IMG/VR virus record: IMGVR_UViG_3300028603_000001
Location: 32,001-96,000 of that record
Length of the DNA: 64,000 nt
Origin: a virus
Lineage: Duplodnaviria > Caudoviricetes
Strand: one strand, 5' to 3'
The position numbers and the translations under genes were made by a program. Below are positions 4,125 to 32,137 of the stretch, piece by piece (position 1 is the first letter of the stretch; every line of letters starts with the position of its first letter). Under the pieces are notes generated by a model, which did no database searches, had not been told where the DNA came from, and saw only the letters and a list, made by a program, of their open reading frames with translations.

Positions 4125-6002
4125 TTAGTCTTCAATACTATCTAACCCTAGCTCTTCAGGAGTTGGAAGGTAAGAATCTTCTTCTTCATCTTCGGCTGTT
4201 TCATTTAAAAGGTCTTTAGTTTCTTCTTGATGGAAAGATTCTAATGGTGCTAGTTCTGCTTCAGGTTCAGATAAGTCTAATCCTGAATCTGATTCAAAAT
4301 CAATATCTTCTGAGTTGTTATCATCAGCTTTTTCATTATTTTCTTCTTCTTTAGCTTTTAATATATCAATATAATCATGAATATAACTAATTACTTCTGG
4401 GTTACCAATAACGTCTCCTAATAATGATTTAAGTATTTCTAATCTTATAATTTTATCTTCAATATCACTGAGTTGTTGCATTATATCACTAATATATCTT
4501 AGTCTATTATCATTATTAGCTCTTCTATCTAATTCTTCTTGTGTAACAGGTGCTTGCATTCTAACTCTAAACTTATTTACATAGCTATCTAAGCCTCTGT
4601 CGATTAAGAATAGGTTTATAACATCAATCATCATTTGGCATAAAATATTTTGAATATTTTTTATTGATTTACCATATCGGCTAGATAATATTGTCAAAGA
4701 TGTTCCACCGTTAAATCCAGCACCGTCATCTGTGAACCCAAAGAATTGTTTTGGAACTTTTAAATTACCGAATAATTTGTCTCTGAAATATTCAATATCA
4801 ACTAAAGATTTAGGATCAAAATCGCCACCAAGTGTTGTCGCACTTATTGTTCCCTGTGTTCCATGAACTGGTACATATATGGTATTTTCAATAGGTGCTG
4901 GGTTAGTATATTCAGCCATTCCTGTTCCTACATCTAAAGCAGTTTTTTGTTCTAGCTTATCTTTTAATCTTTGCATAAATACCTGAACTTGATTTTTAGG
5001 CATATCACCTACATCTACGGTAATTATACGTGTTACTGCTGATTTTGTAACTCGGTTTAGTAAAGCAGACATCTCGAGTAATGTTAGTTGTCGCCAATTT
5101 CTAAATGAATTATATAGAATTGATTGACCTCGTTTAACACTGTATGTGCTTGTCATACTATCACTTTTATTTTGAGCTTCTTCTGACAATGAGTCTAAAA
5201 ATATATCTACGGTTTCGGGTTGACGTTGACTAGTTGTTTCTAAACATCCATGAACAAAAGACATAGCATCAAATATCTCAACATCGCTTTGTTTCATCTT
5301 GTATCGCGTTATGTAATTAAACATATTATCATTATGTTGTTGAATAACTCGTGTTGCTGCTTTTATATATCCTTGTGTTTTACCAAATTTTTGTAAATCA
5401 AACATCTCTCCTGGATTATCAACCATTTGAATATAAGGAATGTATTTGTCATTATCTCCATATAATTTTAATTTAACCTCTTCTGTTAAAGGTTCATTGG
5501 TTTTACGAATAATAGATTCATTTAATTTATTCGTTTTAGGGTTATTTTTAAACAATAAATCTTCTTCAACATCGGATTTTCGGAATAAGCGTAAATAAAC
5601 ATCTCCATAGGTAACTAAACAATACGCCCATTGATATAGATGCTTATCAACATTTAATGATTCAAGTAACCATGAAGTATAATTTAAAACTCGAGCATCA
5701 TTAGCTTCTATCCACATTATATCACCATTATCATTTGTTTGCACAACATCTTCAGCATAAGTTTCAAGAACAGCAGCAATAATTGTGTCTTGAGTCATGG
5801 CGTCTATTAGTTGATAAGCTTGTTCTCTGTTTTGCGCACTTTGGGTTAATGCGTCTATAGATGATAAATCTAATGTTCCAACTTGCGCAGAATCAAGAAT
5901 ATTGTCTATAAATGTTTTCTCTGTATCAATACCAATTTCTGGGGTTGTTGCAGATATTGGTTTAACTTTAACTTCATTTAAATTAATTTTATTATCGTTC
6001 AT
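4125..6002 (-). CDS. Portal protein (T4 gp20-like)
   Basis: DIEYFRDKLFGNLKVP and RIITVDVGDMP motifs typical of gp20-family portals; directly follows the terminase. Confidence 0.9.
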   Translation of the reverse strand: MNDNKINLNEVKVKPISATTPEIGIDTEKTFIDNILDSAQVGTLDLSSIDALTQSAQNREQAYQLIDAMTQDTIIAAVLETYAEDVVQTNDNGDIMWIEANDARVLNYTSWLLESLNVDKHLYQWAYCLVTYGDVYLRLFRKSDVEEDLLFKNNPKTNKLNESIIRKTNEPLTEEVKLKLYGDNDKYIPYIQMVDNPGEMFDLQKFGKTQGYIKAATRVIQQHNDNMFNYITRYKMKQSDVEIFDAMSFVHGCLETTSQRQPETVDIFLDSLSEEAQNKSDSMTSTYSVKRGQSILYNSFRNWRQLTLLEMSALLNRVTKSAVTRIITVDVGDMPKNQVQVFMQRLKDKLEQKTALDVGTGMAEYTNPAPIENTIYVPVHGTQGTISATTLGGDFDPKSLVDIEYFRDKLFGNLKVPKQFFGFTDDGAGFNGGTSLTILSSRYGKSIKNIQNILCQMMIDVINLFLIDRGLDSYVNKFRVRMQAPVTQEELDRRANNDNRLRYISDIMQQLSDIEDKIIRLEILKSLLGDVIGNPEVISYIHDYIDILKAKEEENNEKADDNNSEDIDFESDSGLDLSEPEAELAPLESFHQEETKDLLNETAEDEEEDSYLPTPEELGLDSIED

Positions 6003-6011
6003 ATTTCTCCT

Positions 6012-7517
6012 TTATAGTATGATTATATCATCATACATAAAATAATCTTCAGTTTTCTTTTGGGCATCCGATGGGTGCATCCGATCTGGTTTTAATCTCC
6101 CATTAATCATTTTTAACTCTTCTTCCATGTTTAATGTTAATTGCTTAATATCATCTGAGAAACTATTATCTTCATTTATCTGCAATAACTGTTCAGCGCT
6201 TTCACCATATTCATAAGCGAACTGTTCAGCATGCTTACTTGCGTTAAATATTGATCCACAAACAGCATCGCAGACATCTTTCGCTCCACCGCTCGGGTGA
6301 TCTATTTTACCAGTATTGATATTACGCTCTAGATTAATTATCTGATGTATAAGCATCCTGTCATCGTACATCTCTAATCTTTTTTCATATATAGTTGATT
6401 TGAAATATTGGTAAGGAACACACACATGGTTTGTATCAACACGATCGACCGATAACACAGAATATGGATAACCTTTAGCTCTTAACGTCTCACCAGTATC
6501 ATAAGATTGATATGTATCTGTTGTTATCCCTCTTATATTAAAACCTTTGCTTTTTAACCAGTAAATAAAGTTTCTATTTTTTTCAAAACTTATATGTCTC
6601 CCTCTTGGAGCTTTAATACTAACACTAAAAGCTAAAGAATAAAACAAATCTTTACTTTGGTCTAAATCTATTTGAGAATGTTTTTTTCCTCGTATAAATA
6701 TTCCTGCGATTCCAGTCATATCTCCTGAATAAGACATATCTAAATGTATAAATAGTGGTTTATATCTTAAAGCTGGGTCAATTTTATCTAGATCAAAGAA
6801 ATTATAATATTGAACTTCTGCATCATCTGGTCCATCACCGATTTCTAATATTTCACGACTGAATGGATTTTTAATTCTGTCTGTTACATTTTCAACCGCA
6901 GCAGCTCCGTTTATATATTTAGAAATGCTTGATGCTGAGATACCTGCAAAATCACATAAAGCTCTATCTATATCATCTAGAAAATCTGGTTTAAAATCTA
7001 TTGGTACATTGATTATTTCACTATACCCTTTTTCTCTATATGCCTCAATATCTTCATCATCTTTCATTACAACAGAATCTAAAAATTTATTTCCTAAAGC
7101 AACTCTAAATGTTGTTTCTGAATAAGTTCCAGGTGGTTTAACTTCCCAAACACTTCCTTCTGAAATATAAACATTATCTTTCTCTGAAATAAGTTTTTTT
7201 CTCATATGTTCTTCAAGAAAAGATTTATCGCTTCTTTTTGATGAAGCCAAGACTAGTAAGGTAGGATTTTTACCACGGTGTACAAATCTTGTTTTCATAC
7301 CTCCGATAGCTGTATCAATCATGTCATTGGCTTTTTTCTTTTGTTTTTCGATATCTTGATTTCTTTGGAATGAAACCTCGTCAAAAAAGCAGTTATGTGA
7401 ACATATATACGCAGTATTTGTTTTGATAAAGAAGTTGTTAAATGGATTAGCATTTATAACATCATAATATTTTTTAGGGGCATCTAAGTGATTTATCTTT
7501 ATACTTTTAATTCTCAT
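6012..7517 (-). CDS. Terminase large subunit, C-terminal half, preceded by a 42-aa C-intein
   Basis: YYDV...NNF...CSHN|CFFDE (intein blocks F/G, +1 Cys, then Walker B); nuclease motifs IHLDMS, TDTYQS, KIDHP.GGAKDVCDAV. Confidence 0.9.
   Translation of the reverse strand: MRIKSIKINHLDAPKKYYDVINANPFNNFFIKTNTAYICSHNCFFDEVSFQRNQDIEKQKKKANDMIDTAIGGMKTRFVHRGKNPTLLVLASSKRSDKSFLEEHMRKKLISEKDNVYISEGSVWEVKPPGTYSETTFRVALGNKFLDSVVMKDDEDIEAYREKGYSEIINVPIDFKPDFLDDIDRALCDFAGISASSISKYINGAAAVENVTDRIKNPFSREILEIGDGPDDAEVQYYNFFDLDKIDPALRYKPLFIHLDMSYSGDMTGIAGIFIRGKKHSQIDLDQSKDLFYSLAFSVSIKAPRGRHISFEKNRNFIYWLKSKGFNIRGITTDTYQSYDTGETLRAKGYPYSVLSVDRVDTNHVCVPYQYFKSTIYEKRLEMYDDRMLIHQIINLERNINTGKIDHPSGGAKDVCDAVCGSIFNASKHAEQFAYEYGESAEQLLQINEDNSFSDDIKQLTLNMEEELKMINGRLKPDRMHPSDAQKKTEDYFMYDDIIIL
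7392..7517 (-). mobile_element. Split intein, C-terminal part (IntC)
   Basis: MRIKSIK...YDV...NNF...SHN, ending His-Asn before Cys. Confidence 0.85.
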
Positions 7518-8724
7518 TTTTATATCCCCATATTAAATTTTCAATTATATATTTAAATTTTTTAATTGTGCGTTTAGAATATCCTTTATTTTCAATATTT
7601 CTAATGGCTGAACCTGAAATATCGGGGTAACCATTCTCTTTTAGATATGTTACTAAATCATTTCTACACTCAAATCTAATATTATTAAAAATATAATATT
7701 TGGTAGCGTTAGTGTTATTACCACCGGTTCTTAAATAACCTTTTCCATACATTGAATTTTTACAACCCTTGTGTGCTTCTGATTTACGCAACATAGCATC
7801 TTTATCATTATAATAATTGGTCATATTGTGAGCTTTTCTAGCTGTAATATTTCCTTTTTCCCATCCATTGGGTATCTCTAAGGATTTATCAATAAATTTT
7901 ACTAGCTCACCATTGTTTATTGCTATTTTATCTTTAAGTGTCTGATATCCGCTATGATTTAGCTTTTTAGCTGATGAGCTCATCTTTGTTTTTGTTTCAT
8001 CAGACAATATTTTACCTCTATTCCCAACGCTTATTTTAGCTTTAGTGTCAGGGCTCAAACGCTTGCCTCGGTTTATATCAGATAATTTTTTACGGTGTCC
8101 AGCTGTTTTAGGTCTTCCTTTAAGCGCAGCACTAATGCGAGCTCTTGAAACCTCACCTAGATCCCCACCTTGTCCACCATCTGCAATATTATATCCGATA
8201 GTAGAATCATTAGAATTGAACTTTTTAATATATTCCTTCTCACCGTTATTTAAATCATTTTTGGAAGCATAAAGCTGCAGAATTTCGCATTTGAAATTAT
8301 TTATACCATATTTTTTTACGGCTTTATTTAAAGCAAAACCACTTCCTAAATAATTTGAATCTAAAAATGCTTTTTTATGTTGACCGATATATATCTTTCC
8401 ATTAATCAAATTTGTTGTTTTATAGACATACCCATATGGGATAAAATCTAATATCTCATCTGCTTCAGTTAACTTTTGAGCTTCTTTATAAGAACCATCT
8501 ACTAACCTAAATCTATGAGTTGGGGTGCATTTTATAATGCTACCATCTTCTAGTTCTATTTCATATTCGATGCTAGATTCTGCTGTTTGTTTAACGGTAC
8601 ATTCATCGCTTATTATAAATTTATGATCATCTGATAAAGTGGGAACTTTAATTTTCTTGTCTAATAAATCCTCAATTTTGAATGTTCCATTTGTTGTTAA
8701 AATTTCGGTGTTTCCTTCAAGACA
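7507..8724 (-). mobile_element. Split intein N-part (~8724-8445) with in-frame GIY-YIG/NUMOD3 endonuclease (~8440-7507)
   Basis: Cys1 codon at 8724; block B TxxH; GIY-YIG motif follows with no intervening stop. Confidence 0.85.
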
Positions 8725-9387
8725 AAAATATATAGGCAAACCAATTAAATCATCAGCTTGTGAACCTATTTTAATATCAACAGCTTCTTGGTTATTGAAT
8801 TTTTGTGGTACCCATACTTTATTTGTTCTTCCTTCAATTGTTCCATGCTTTAAAAACCAAGGACTAGATTGAATAGTGTTTTGAAATTTAGCTATACCTA
8901 TTTCTTCTGCTAAGTCTTTTTTGATATTCATAAACGCAAAAACAAGCTTTTCAGTAGGTTTTAAGTGAAAATAAGCTATTGGATCTTTTAAGCATAATAC
9001 CCTGTGGAGAAGATAAGCAGCTATTAATACAGCTATCTCTGTTTTTCCACGACCACGAGACCCAGAGAGGATAGCGTTATTGATTGAAGTTGTCAAATTA
9101 TCTGGGAATATTTTTACTAGCTCTTCTCTCCAATATGGGTATAATTTAGATTTACCTTCACTATCATGCCATGCGTTTCCTAAATATTCATAATTATCTA
9201 CAAAGGTTAAGATATCAACCGGAATTTCATTGTAATCTTCAAGTAATAGTTTGTTTAACTGCTCTGATGTACCTTCTTTAGAATACTCTTCTAAAATAGC
9301 AAGAGCTAACTCTTTTTCTTCTGGTGATAATGATTCTAGCAAAGATAGATCCAGATTTTGGTTATTTATATTTGTTTTGCTGACCAA
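7507..9387 (-). CDS. Terminase large subunit N-terminal half, fused to N-intein and a GIY-YIG homing endonuclease
   Basis: TTG start with AGGAG; LYPYW Q-motif region, Walker A GSRGRGKT; intein CLEGNTEI...CTPTHRF; GYVY...IYIGQH...YLGSG plus NUMOD3-like repeats. Confidence 0.9.
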   Translation of the reverse strand: MVSKTNINNQNLDLSLLESLSPEEKELALAILEEYSKEGTSEQLNKLLLEDYNEIPVDILTFVDNYEYLGNAWHDSEGKSKLYPYWREELVKIFPDNLTTSINNAILSGSRGRGKTEIAVLIAAYLLHRVLCLKDPIAYFHLKPTEKLVFAFMNIKKDLAEEIGIAKFQNTIQSSPWFLKHGTIEGRTNKVWVPQKFNNQEAVDIKIGSQADDLIGLPIYFCLEGNTEILTTNGTFKIEDLLDKKIKVPTLSDDHKFIISDECTVKQTAESSIEYEIELEDGSIIKCTPTHRFRLVDGSYKEAQKLTEADEILDFIPYGYVYKTTNLINGKIYIGQHKKAFLDSNYLGSGFALNKAVKKYGINNFKCEILQLYASKNDLNNGEKEYIKKFNSNDSTIGYNIADGGQGGDLGEVSRARISAALKGRPKTAGHRKKLSDINRGKRLSPDTKAKISVGNRGKILSDETKTKMSSSAKKLNHSGYQTLKDKIAINNGELVKFIDKSLEIPNGWEKGNITARKAHNMTNYYNDKDAMLRKSEAHKGCKNSMYGKGYLRTGGNNTNATKYYIFNNIRFECRNDLVTYLKENGYPDISGSAIRNIENKGYSKRTIKKFKYIIENLIWGYKNEN

Positions 9388-9434
9388 GTTATTTCTCCTG
9401 CCTTTCTCTAAAATTTTTCAAGTTTTTCACTAAT

Positions 9435-9458
9435 ATCATACAATTTTAATTGTATAAT
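9435..9458. promoter_or_regulatory. Back-to-back pair of ATTGTAT motifs forming a palindrome upstream of the terminase
   Basis: ATACAATT-TT-AATTGTAT at 9438-9455. Confidence 0.5.
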
Positions 9459-10285
9459 TATTTTCGGTCTTTTTCAGATCTTTCTTGTTGAGCTACAGGA
9501 TTCTTATTGCTTCCTTTTTTAATTCTACCTCTAACTTTACCTAAAGCGTTTGATAAATTAATCAAAGACTCATCTGACTCTAATTTGTTTTTTACGGTTC
9601 CTTTTTCATCATAGTCAAATATACTTAGTTGAACTGCTTTATCATAAGTCATTCCATATATTTTAGGGAATATGAATCTACTGTAATTAAATTCCATATG
9701 ATCTTTGCAATAGTTGATATAGTTATTTATTACAGAAGATATTTTTTTTATCCATTCTGCGTTATTTAAAACGTTTAGTATATGCTTACAAGCTGCTCCT
9801 AAATTATCATGAGGGTTAGTTATCTTAGCTTCTCTTTTTTCTTCTTTACCTGTGTTATAATTATTTTTTGTTGCCCATACTTTAAATCTAAATTTAAAAT
9901 CAGGGCAAGAACAATCTACTTTTACATCACTGCTATTTAAAGCTTCAACTAAAGAATCATATATTATTTTCAAAGAAAGTTTATTTTTATTTTCAATTAT
10001 TCTTTTCTTTATTCTATCAAGGACTTTTGTGAATTCCACGGTTACGTTATAATTGTCTGTTTCACCTTTTATATTTATTCCGAAATTAAGAATATCTTTT
10101 TTCCAAAAAGTGTTCATATCTATCTTATTATATTCTTTTACAGTATTTGCTATGTAAACTTGTTTTTTAGCATCCCATCTATTACCTTTTTTGCTTTTAT
10201 ATTTTTCACCCTTTCTGGATTTCAAAAGCAAATCTCTTCTGGTTGCTTCACTTAAACTATATCTAACAACTCTATTTTTTTCCAT
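9458..10285 (-). CDS. SWIM-type zinc finger protein
   Basis: CSCPDF...ACKHI; basic protein; N-terminal SLSEA motif. Confidence 0.75.
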   Translation of the reverse strand: MEKNRVVRYSLSEATRRDLLLKSRKGEKYKSKKGNRWDAKKQVYIANTVKEYNKIDMNTFWKKDILNFGINIKGETDNYNVTVEFTKVLDRIKKRIIENKNKLSLKIIYDSLVEALNSSDVKVDCSCPDFKFRFKVWATKNNYNTGKEEKREAKITNPHDNLGAACKHILNVLNNAEWIKKISSVINNYINYCKDHMEFNYSRFIFPKIYGMTYDKAVQLSIFDYDEKGTVKNKLESDESLINLSNALGKVRGRIKKGSNKNPVAQQERSEKDRK

Positions 10286-31801: not shown

Positions 31802-32137
31802 TTATTTATTTTCCTTTCGTATTTTTAATTTTAAATCATATAAAATTTCTAAACCATATGCTTTCGCAACAGTATGCTCAATGCGACATCCGCGAGCATT
31901 TTCCCAACCCTTGATAAAATAAACAGCATCACATAAAGACATATATTCTAACGATTTTGCTAAATATGCTACTGATTCTTGTTTTGTGGCAGAGGTGATA
32001 ACATTTTCATCAACAAACGAATCAACAAATTCATACCCCATGTTTATTAGCTTTGAAATTGTTTTTTCTCTTTCATTTTTTATTTCAGTTTCAGTTTTAT
32101 TGGCCATTGGCTGACTTATCATGACTTTTTTAACCAT
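31802..32137 (-). CDS. DUF4406 / nucleoside deoxyribosyltransferase-like protein
   Basis: ISQPM...CDAVYF..GWENARGCRIEH. Confidence 0.75.
   Translation of the reverse strand: MVKKVMISQPMANKTETEIKNEREKTISKLINMGYEFVDSFVDENVITSATKQESVAYLAKSLEYMSLCDAVYFIKGWENARGCRIEHTVAKAYGLEILYDLKLKIRKENK

Follow-up and report, generated by a model that had tools for sequence, protein, structure and literature searches.

A phage large-terminase gene broken at Walker B by a putative trans-splicing split intein with a GIY-YIG nuclease fused to its N-terminal half

Introduction

For fractured phage genes, Dassa et al. 2009 (PMC2677866) described split inteins with free-standing GIY-YIG or Vsr-like nucleases, stated that both nuclease types were unknown within inteins, and proposed that loss of the flanks of the nuclease gene could bring the nuclease in frame. 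Here we analyse a related locus in a 64,000-nt stretch of DNA (hereafter the window; positions 32,001 to 96,000 of the IMG/VR record IMGVR_UViG_3300028603_000001, a virus of the Caudoviricetes), in which the gene for the large terminase (TerL) is divided between two open reading frames (ORFs) by a split intein, the N-terminal half (IntN) being fused in frame to a GIY-YIG homing endonuclease and the C-terminal half (IntC) being encoded separately, ahead of the rest of TerL. All positions are those of the window unless they are said to be those of the genome. A first-pass annotation, made from the letters of the window, had stated that intein nucleases are usually of the LAGLIDADG type and that fractured phage genes usually hold a free-standing nuclease between the halves, which agrees with the 2009 study (PMC2677866).

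As in the fractured genes of gp41-1, NrdJ-1 and IMPDH-1 (PMC2677866) and in AceL NrdHF (PMC7891396), the gene is cut at the canonical nuclease-insertion loop of the intein, and, as in the genes of Dassa et al. 2009, a GIY-YIG nuclease lies between the halves in one locus and the charges of the halves are complementary. In contrast to those genes, there is no free-standing nuclease ORF here; the nuclease is part of the IntN polypeptide and its stop codon lies within IntC codons.

AceL-TerL and GOS-TerL are said to be atypically split TerL inteins (reportedly Thiel 2014; Bachmann and Mootz 2015). Like the inteins of this atypical kind, i.e. the 'Terminase' locus of Dassa et al. 2009, the present one is a natural split intein in a phage large terminase, and packaging would therefore depend on trans-splicing. 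However, in the 'Terminase' type the split comes after motif N1, IntN is very short and IntC has >100 aa, whereas here the split is at the canonical site and the halves measure 96 and 42 aa. The same split site and the same pattern of an acidic N-terminal and a basic C-terminal half are found in the Npu and Ssp DnaE split inteins (PDB 4lx3, 4qfq, 2keq, 4kl5), although the sequence identity is low and the DnaE halves, unlike those of this phage, lie far apart in the genome, without a nuclease.

With canonical bifunctional inteins, which carry a LAGLIDADG or HNH nuclease in frame, the locus shares the feature that intein and nuclease are translated together. Gosselin et al. 2025 (bioRxiv 10.1101/2025.01.02.630785) reported out-of-frame and antisense nucleases in contiguous actinophage inteins, and proposed that free-standing nucleases invade inteins and are later shifted in frame. 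Inteins of these kinds are one polypeptide, closed at either side, or else encode the nuclease in a different frame or strand, whereas here only the N-terminal side is closed, the intein stays split rather than contiguous, and the frame break is conserved. The nuclease resembles the Seg- and I-TevI-type GIY-YIG enzymes of T4-like phages (PF19835, PF01541; 1ln0) in having an N-terminal GIY-YIG domain, NUMOD3 and a C-terminal DNA-binding part, but those are free-standing or intron-encoded, with an initiation of their own. The locus is a variant of the 2009 fractured-gene arrangement that is undescribed in the literature searched, i.e. full texts with most subscription journals outside the coverage, in which no natural split intein with a nuclease fused to IntN was found.

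Results and discussion

The terminase locus

Two minus-strand ORFs occupy 6012-9387 and overlap by 11 nt (7507-7517), ORF2 being in frame +1 relative to ORF1. ORF1 (9387..7507, 626 aa) starts with TTG, preceded by AGGAGA, and encodes the TerL N-extein, the N-intein and the homing endonuclease in a single frame; its 90% cluster holds five members that are 626 aa long. The N-extein (8725..9387, residues 1-221) contains the Walker A motif GSRGRGKT at 9063..9040 and ends in ..DDLIGLPIYF, i.e. the first half of Walker B. It is followed by IntN (8437..8724, residues 222-317, 96 aa), which runs from Cys1, i.e. Cys222 (codon 8724..8722), through block B TPTH (T288-P-T-H291; 8526..8515) to ..EADEILDF, and which is linked by 2-3 residues to a Seg-like GIY-YIG catalytic domain (8158..8436, residues 318-410) with the motifs GYVY at 8433..8422 and IYIG at 8394..8383. 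The remainder of ORF1 (7510..8157, residues 411-626) consists of NUMOD3 repeats and a conserved C-terminal module, presumed to be DNA-binding, with the tail ..LIWGYKNEN in front of the stop codon at 7509..7507.

ORF2 (7517..6012, minus strand, 501 aa) begins with MRIKSIKINHL.. and consists of a 42-aa IntC (7392..7517) ending in ..ICSHN and of the TerL C-extein (6012..7391, 459 aa plus stop), which starts with CFFDEVSF.., the Walker B Asp-Glu being found in CFFDE at 7391..7377; the portal gene adjoins directly. Pfam assigned SegE_GIY-YIG (28.8 bits, cut-off 25) and NUMOD3 (25.3 bits, cut-off 20.4) to ORF1, with Intein_splicing below its cut-off, and PHROGs assigned phrog_314, homing endonuclease (8e-39). 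ORF2 had no match in Pfam or PHROGs, and is identified as the C-terminal part of TerL because of tblastn matches to annotated terminases and because of an intein-less homologue on the IMG/VR contig L004.

The first-pass annotation had given the same coordinates and ORF composition, with the cysteine codon at 8724, the TxxH motif, the 11-nt overlap and a 42-aa C-intein ending in ..SHN, all of which hold. It had read the locus as a TerL gene that a naturally split intein breaks at Walker B, as the motifs, which are those of class 1, and the intein-less contig L004 support, with the N-terminal half fused in frame to GIY-YIG/NUMOD3 and the C-terminal half separately initiated, as is supported by the ORFs and by Pfam.

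Removal of the cassette restores a terminase

On contig L004, a TerL that is 83 % identical in its N-terminal part is uninterrupted at the site and reads ..DDLIGLPIYFCFFDEVSFQRNQ.., and its protein junction, ..LPIYFCFFDEVSF.., is identical to the predicted splice product of the window, i.e. the exact ..IYF-CFFDE.. that splicing had been expected to rebuild in the first-pass annotation. A second contig, L006 (79 % identical), is also without the Walker B cassette and reads ..LPIFFSFFDE... As one gap-free DNA block, the 240 nt that close the N-extein and the 240 nt that open the C-extein align to L004, with 90-96 % identity within 60 nt on either side of the insertion point, and the cassette can therefore be delimited to 8724..7392, i.e. 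1333 nt. The predicted spliced TerL has 680 aa and a rebuilt Walker B motif (..IYFCFFDE..).

A different intein was seen in the TerL nuclease domain of L004 (5983..8502) and L006 (620..2740), extending from ..DHPDGG/CFTG.. to ..FVHN/SKD; it is a mini-intein in these two and carries an HNH-like insert in the protein P0157 (96 % identical to ORF2), while the window's own TerL is without it.

Features of the intein and proposed mechanism

The two halves lie on separate polypeptides and each is joined to one extein, as is characteristic of a split intein. The class-1 splicing residues are conserved, i.e. C222 and H291 are invariant and T288 nearly so in 28 fused homologues, and in IntC N42 and C43 are invariant and H41 nearly so; in the window, residues 40-43 of ORF2 read ..SHN/C and thus provide the penultimate His, the terminal Asn and the +1 Cys. 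With net charges of -10 for IntN and +4 for IntC, the halves show the complementary acidic-N/basic-C pattern, and the nearest solved sequences to IntN are the Npu DnaE N-inteins (E about 8e-5). A complex of ORF1 residues 212-420 with ORF2 residues 1-55 was modelled in three runs, giving an interaction prediction score from aligned errors (ipSAE) of 0.75 in all three, versus 0.00 for the best control; that mark is reached by 58 of 80 solved complexes and by two of 110 mismatched pairs. The runs share at least 93 % of contacts, with a predicted local distance difference test (pLDDT) value of at least 76 for the partner, and in the model IntC residues 1-43 touch residues 220-317, while the nuclease domain hardly contacts IntC. 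Complexes of this type are already solved in the PDB, and the docking score is to be read as likeness of the modelled pair to known split inteins rather than as binding.

As we picture it, the sole large-terminase gene carries a mobile class-1 split-intein cassette within its Walker B codons. One late message with two overlapping ORFs would yield TerL(1-221)-IntN-nuclease from ORF1, and ribosomes would start IntC-TerL(222-680) at the ATG 8 nt upstream of the ORF1 stop, behind GGGGA, the two halves being coupled. The acidic IntN and the basic IntC would dock as one HINT fold, in which Cys1, TxxH, His-Asn and Cys+1 would perform trans-splicing, giving a 680-aa TerL with an intact Walker B as well as an IntN-nuclease/IntC by-product. 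This by-product, or the precursor, may cut intein-less TerL alleles of co-infecting relatives, and repair would then copy the whole cassette.

The feature is real and conserved, and is almost certainly functional; we consider it very likely that a split TerL intein cassette with a fused nuclease, trans-spliced and mobile, explains it as a whole. Several points weigh against this explanation. The docking score may stem from solved split inteins that the model has memorised; the F-block His is replaced by Asn (NNF) here, as in many relatives; splicing, cleavage and expression are all inferred; and minor +1 read-through at the stop may yield some contiguous intein. Furthermore, the nuclease has no conserved Arg after YIGQ (the equivalent of Arg27 in I-TevI), the Seg-like subfamily having Y-x-GSG instead. 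Active Seg enzymes of T4 have the same Y-x-GSG motif.

A further possibility is that the halves come together without a covalent bond, the intein pieces serving only for dimerisation and not for splicing, given that split genes can work unligated, as in the NrdA of phage Aeh1 (PMC3045599). Against this, all splicing residues are conserved across the family, the Walker B strand itself is interrupted, some 140 additional residues plus a nuclease being thereby placed in the ATPase core, and intein-less relatives have precisely the ligated sequence. We regard such an unligated assembly as very improbable.

The junction between the two reading frames

A run of five A (7518-7522) lies at the junction, where a 1-nt error could have joined or parted the frames: deletion of one A from tataaaaatgag joins both, and the locus would then be one contiguous intein with an in-frame GIY-YIG nuclease, broken by a sequencing or assembly indel. 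Public contigs were therefore examined by alignment to 5900-9500, and came from four runs, three of them from other studies. Over 5900-9500, an independent Logan assembly of a landfill metagenome run, the probable source of the DNA, matches the window exactly. The stretch 7505-7520 is spanned without a gap by contigs from an anaerobic digester (6491-7999, 44 substitutions), sludge (6910-7618, 94 substitutions) and a bioreactor (7294-7858, 19 substitutions), which are 3-13 % diverged, and no indels are listed between 7261 and 9500 in the aligned contigs. Two RNA runs, X4 and X6, contain roughly one third of the sampled words. Moreover, the end point of ORF1 recurs at the equivalent residue in homologues of as little as about 42 % identity, seven IMG/VR loci show a separate IntC ORF in their DNA, and P0157 begins at the same Met as ORF2. 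An indel at 7505-7520, an error of the kind that the first-pass annotation had named as one that would refute its reading, is absent from the contigs of all four runs; a misread junction has next to no probability left, and we conclude that the frame break is real and that a sequencing error is excluded.

The virus record is a complete genome of 180.8 kb with terminal repeats, which has a single copy of the C-terminal part of TerL and no second TerL gene. On this lone copy, the interrupted terminase gene would be an essential one. An Rfam scan of 5500-10000 found no intron or other RNA family.

At the overlap (7507..7517, minus strand), the ORF1 stop TAA sits within the IntC codons ATT-AAA, and the IntC ATG within the nuclease codons AAT-GAG. 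A Shine-Dalgarno-like GGGGA (7525..7529) lies 7 nt before this ATG, within the Trp-Gly codons of the nuclease, and a similar sequence is found at the equivalent place in the loci L007, L008 and L138-L149 and in the phages HSE3, LIS04 and SP-15. At the other end of the nuclease, the frame runs without a stop from IntN to the GIY motif, and none of the codons ATG, GTG and TTG occurs in frame nearby. Having no start codon of its own, the nuclease can therefore be made only within ORF1, its synthesis being tied to that of the N-terminal part of TerL.

Relatives of the fused form

ORF1 was searched against 1.84 billion representative proteins, and the top 150 representatives, together with members of ten of their clusters, were parsed by domain; intein-less proteins in the same match list were left out of the counts that follow. 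IntN at the Walker B site is followed by an in-frame GIY-YIG nuclease, after which the protein ends, in 43 proteins (about 30 distinct 50% clusters), by another in-frame domain in 23 (about 10 distinct 50% clusters) and directly by a stop in 34, while 28 proteins have a contiguous mini-intein. The GIY-YIG fusions comprise at least three subtypes. As for the other domains, five of the ten proteins tested carry Pfam HNH_3 with or without NUMOD4, and two further ones show an HHIIPKC-type HNH motif by alignment, Pfam there reporting only NUMOD3 and/or the intein domain. Comparison with related phages, proposed with the first-pass annotation, yields intein-less, split and fused relatives at the Walker B site.

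Two of the homologues, P0001 (65 % identity) and P0008 (45 %), are end-to-end colinear with ORF1 and have the same stop residue, ..W[GR]YKNE[ND]. The clusters of P0001, P0008, P0002 and P0018 have up to 12 members (6-12 for P0002, P0008 and P0018), on contigs of up to about 200 kb.

Eight further fused loci at 35-46 % identity, seven with GIY-YIG and one with HNH, came from a profile scan of IMG/VR. The IntC ORF is present on the contig in seven of them, starting at the homologous Met, while the contig of the eighth, L137 (GIY-YIG), ends before IntC. The IntC start overlaps the end of the fused ORF by 4 nt in L141 and L143, by 11 nt in L144 and L149, i.e. with the same -11 geometry as in the window, by 14 nt in L138 and by 20 nt in L139, and follows it after a 157-nt gap in L140; a GGAGG-like sequence lies upstream of the start in all seven. 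In L144 and L149 the nuclease end, ..K-N-E-N-stop or ..K-D-E-D-stop, is the IntC start ATG-AAR-ATT-AAA read one base off, with the nuclease TAA within IntC Ile-Lys. The KNEN tail is common to the GIY-YIG and HNH versions because the nuclease end overlaps the IntC start codons. Translational coupling of both halves is the natural reading of this geometry, and one that we infer.

The overlap also bears on a second way of obtaining a contiguous, cis-splicing precursor, namely a programmed +1 frameshift or a bypass of the stop, with the separate IntC start unused or only partly used. The frames do overlap, a +1 shift at AAT-TAA-A leads into ..KSIKINHL.., and translational bypassing was raised for fractured genes by Dassa et al. 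2009 (PMC2677866). However, no RF2-like stimulator lies at the right spacing, and the variable overlap (4, 11, 14 or 20 nt) leaves no conserved slippery site. In addition, the same IntC Met follows a non-coding gap of 50-940 nt in relatives, or even lies 60 kb away (GXN1), where read-through is impossible. Programmed recoding is highly improbable on these grounds, and separate, coupled initiation of IntC is preferred.

Among deposited phages, Bacillus phages vB_BceM-HSE3 and SP-15, Listeria phage LIS04 and Streptococcus phage vB_SagM-GXN1 have the same intein at the same site, on two genes. In all of them a Shine-Dalgarno sequence precedes the C-half ORF, whose first residue is the homologous Met (MKVKS.., MKVSY.., MKIKS..); in HSE3 the halves are gp054 and gp056, with a 90-aa ORF in between. 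A megablast of the region against the deposited phage collection gave no match, and in a protein search of deposited phages none covers at least 80 % of ORF1, no cultured phage with precisely this fused GIY-YIG form being found. On inspection, neither Vibrio phage 150E35-1 (H39) nor Salmonella phage S16 (H37) has a colinear fusion. A viral-contig scan with P0001 gave no match. The 80 loci from a metagenome scan are of the general GIY-YIG kind and include no fusion to an intein half; the classic layout occurs in one of them, L112.

The deposited terminases show further breaks. In the cultured phage vB_SagM-GXN1 (PQ819873.1), the N-terminal part of TerL with IntN lies at 61.2 kb (L127 2378..3316) and IntC with the C-terminal part at 122.6 kb (L128 1447..4053), the latter being unannotated in the record. 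This second ORF ends in another N-intein (after ..DHPPNS), which is fused in frame to a Vsr/DUF559-like nuclease without a C-extein there, and TerL is therefore in at least three pieces. In SP-15 (L003 1708..3199) and LIS04 (L002 1769..3892), a Vsr-like nuclease gene, annotated as 'holliday junction resolvase' or 'endonuclease', cuts the TerL N-extein again upstream of the IntN piece, the terminase there comprising at least three ORFs. Finally, HSE3 gp053 (L001 620..1138, 172 aa), which is annotated as dCTP deaminase, is nearly all mini-intein (C..LEANTEI.. to ..YAHN/C) with about 10 residues flanking it; its annotation probably refers to a fragment of a larger fractured gene.

The nuclease and the mobility of the cassette

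The GIY-YIG residues Y322, Y333, G335, E383 and N400 are invariant in the 28 fused homologues, and I-TevI (1ln0) is a solved GIY-YIG relative. Free-standing homologues of the nuclease (P0052, P0064 and an ORF on L130) start with M-[YF]GY, precisely at the fusion point. Identity along the cassette and its host gene is mosaic. P0153 is 60-90 % identical to the window in the extein and 93-100 % in the intein and most of the nuclease, while in P0003 the identity drops from 86-96 % in the extein to 40-60 % in the intein and 13-36 % in the nuclease. L004 and L006, the closest relatives (79-83 % identity), are without the cassette. This pattern points to different histories of cassette and host gene, a footprint to be expected of homing.

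Once fixed, homing nucleases often decay, and the cassette could be a decaying remnant in which the nuclease is inactive and splicing alone is maintained; a disrupted HNH cassette is found in L008, and a truncated GIY-YIG domain inside the contiguous intein of P0181. On the other hand, the 309-aa nuclease of the window keeps an open, colinear frame in homologues at 45-65 % identity, its catalytic residues (Tyr, Tyr, Glu, Asn) are invariant, and the mosaic identity together with the intein-less close relatives points to recent movement. Decay is therefore an unlikely account, though a less remote one than those discussed above, and a mobile cassette is favoured.

Past the end of the window, at about 95.7-98.0 kb of the genome (L130 103..2406), a DNA-polymerase-like ORF stops abruptly, and behind it lies a free-standing Seg-like GIY-YIG gene (303 aa), which starts with MYGYIY and whose GIY domain is 47 % identical to the fused one. 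The polymerase gene may be fractured without an intein, and its nuclease may be a relative of the fused nuclease.

Split and contiguous forms

In a tree of 103 N-inteins, fused, bare split, classic and contiguous forms are mixed, requiring 39 changes versus a minimum of three; with 96 columns and few supported branches, this tree bears on interspersion rather than on the direction of change. The fused, split P0002 and the contiguous mini-intein P0006 form a closely related pair, with 221 of 222 extein residues and 92 of 96 IntN residues identical. The linker of P0006 has 11 residues (HTQNYKNIKPQ) and that of another mini-intein, P0004, has 12 (TILNRWNNKKEI); both resemble the nuclease tail ..TWGYKNEN, whereas other mini-inteins have short linkers without a YKNEN-like motif. 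Judged by these short protein motifs only, at least two mini-inteins, P0006 and P0004, look derived, i.e. each an intein that re-closed after deletion of the nuclease, passing from split to contiguous.

A switch between the fused form and one coupled by TAA-ATG at the IntN side takes few point changes, and both forms occur within this genome. The fused form is one of several interconvertible, evidently viable states, and the layout a stable family with several unrelated nucleases. In the first-pass annotation, the locus had been taken for an intermediate in split-intein formation. This holds only in part, since the layout forms a stable family, the states are interspersed, and P0006 and P0004 suggest the reverse course.

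It is tempting to speculate, although we doubt this somewhat more than we believe it, that an IntN-fused nuclease with a separate, coupled IntC is a selected, stable solution that lets elongated two-domain nucleases serve inteins. The nucleases would consist of a GIY-YIG or HNH domain, a NUMOD linker and a distal DNA-binding module, with ends that lie far apart on the DNA, so that closure into the intein loop at both ends would be impossible. The fused form would have arisen, or been kept, through repeated nuclease turnover, and split inteins would heal to mini-inteins (from a P0002-like form to P0006), splitting being reversible rather than a one-way decay.

The second fractured gene of the same phage, encoding an SNF2-like helicase (L133 811..2981, L131 2544..; about 106.1-109.1 kb of the genome, outside the window), has the free-standing nuclease of the genes of Dassa et al. 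2009. Here, the N-terminal part and IntN (after ..VVDEVHK) are followed by a stop, 47 nt and a free-standing I-TevI-like GIY-YIG ORF of 372 aa, and IntC (..ILVHN/C) with the helicase's C-terminal part begins 1 nt inside the nuclease stop, i.e. in the classic 2009 layout.

Other arrangements occur in terminases with several inteins. P0181 (1276 aa; NCBI/ENA/Logan, nine contigs of up to 208 kb) and P0039 are TerL proteins with three inteins, i.e. one at the P-loop, a mini-intein at Walker B and, 9 residues on, a contiguous third one with an in-frame truncated GIY-YIG; between its IntN and IntC, the latter has a catalytic domain of about 95 aa and no DNA-binding part. On L008 (1..4400; IMGVR_UViG_3300001598_000083), TerL is broken several times: the IntN stop is followed by 380 nt without a long ORF, the C-terminal two thirds of an HNH-type nuclease then meet IntC by a TAATG overlap, and another intein, accompanied by an HNH ORF, and a third IntC follow downstream. 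Its layout looks like a decaying cassette beside active ones.

Conclusions

The locus bears on a gap in the 2009 model, in that the 5' flank of the nuclease gene is gone here and the 3' flank remains as an overlap, a form that is common, at least at this terminase site. By this layout, GIY-YIG and NUMOD4/HNH_3 nucleases are covalently linked to an intein half, which for GIY-YIG was unknown according to the 2009 paper (PMC2677866). Terminases of this kind bear the wrong annotations 'intein splicing region protein' and 'putative terminase', and are missed by annotators that expect one ORF and by intein surveys.

Use as a protein-ligation tool, which the first-pass annotation had put forward as possibly new, is plausible but ordinary, the halves being of canonical size (96 and 42 aa). 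The family nevertheless provides a large set of natural split inteins of canonical size with a Cys+1 junction, and these could be screened for the speed of ligation, an incremental use. A near-identical strain pair, differing only in that one is split with the nuclease and the other contiguous without it, suggests that split inteins can re-join. The interest of the locus lies mainly in its family, in which modular nucleases have repeatedly been captured covalently by an intein half and split inteins have apparently re-joined.

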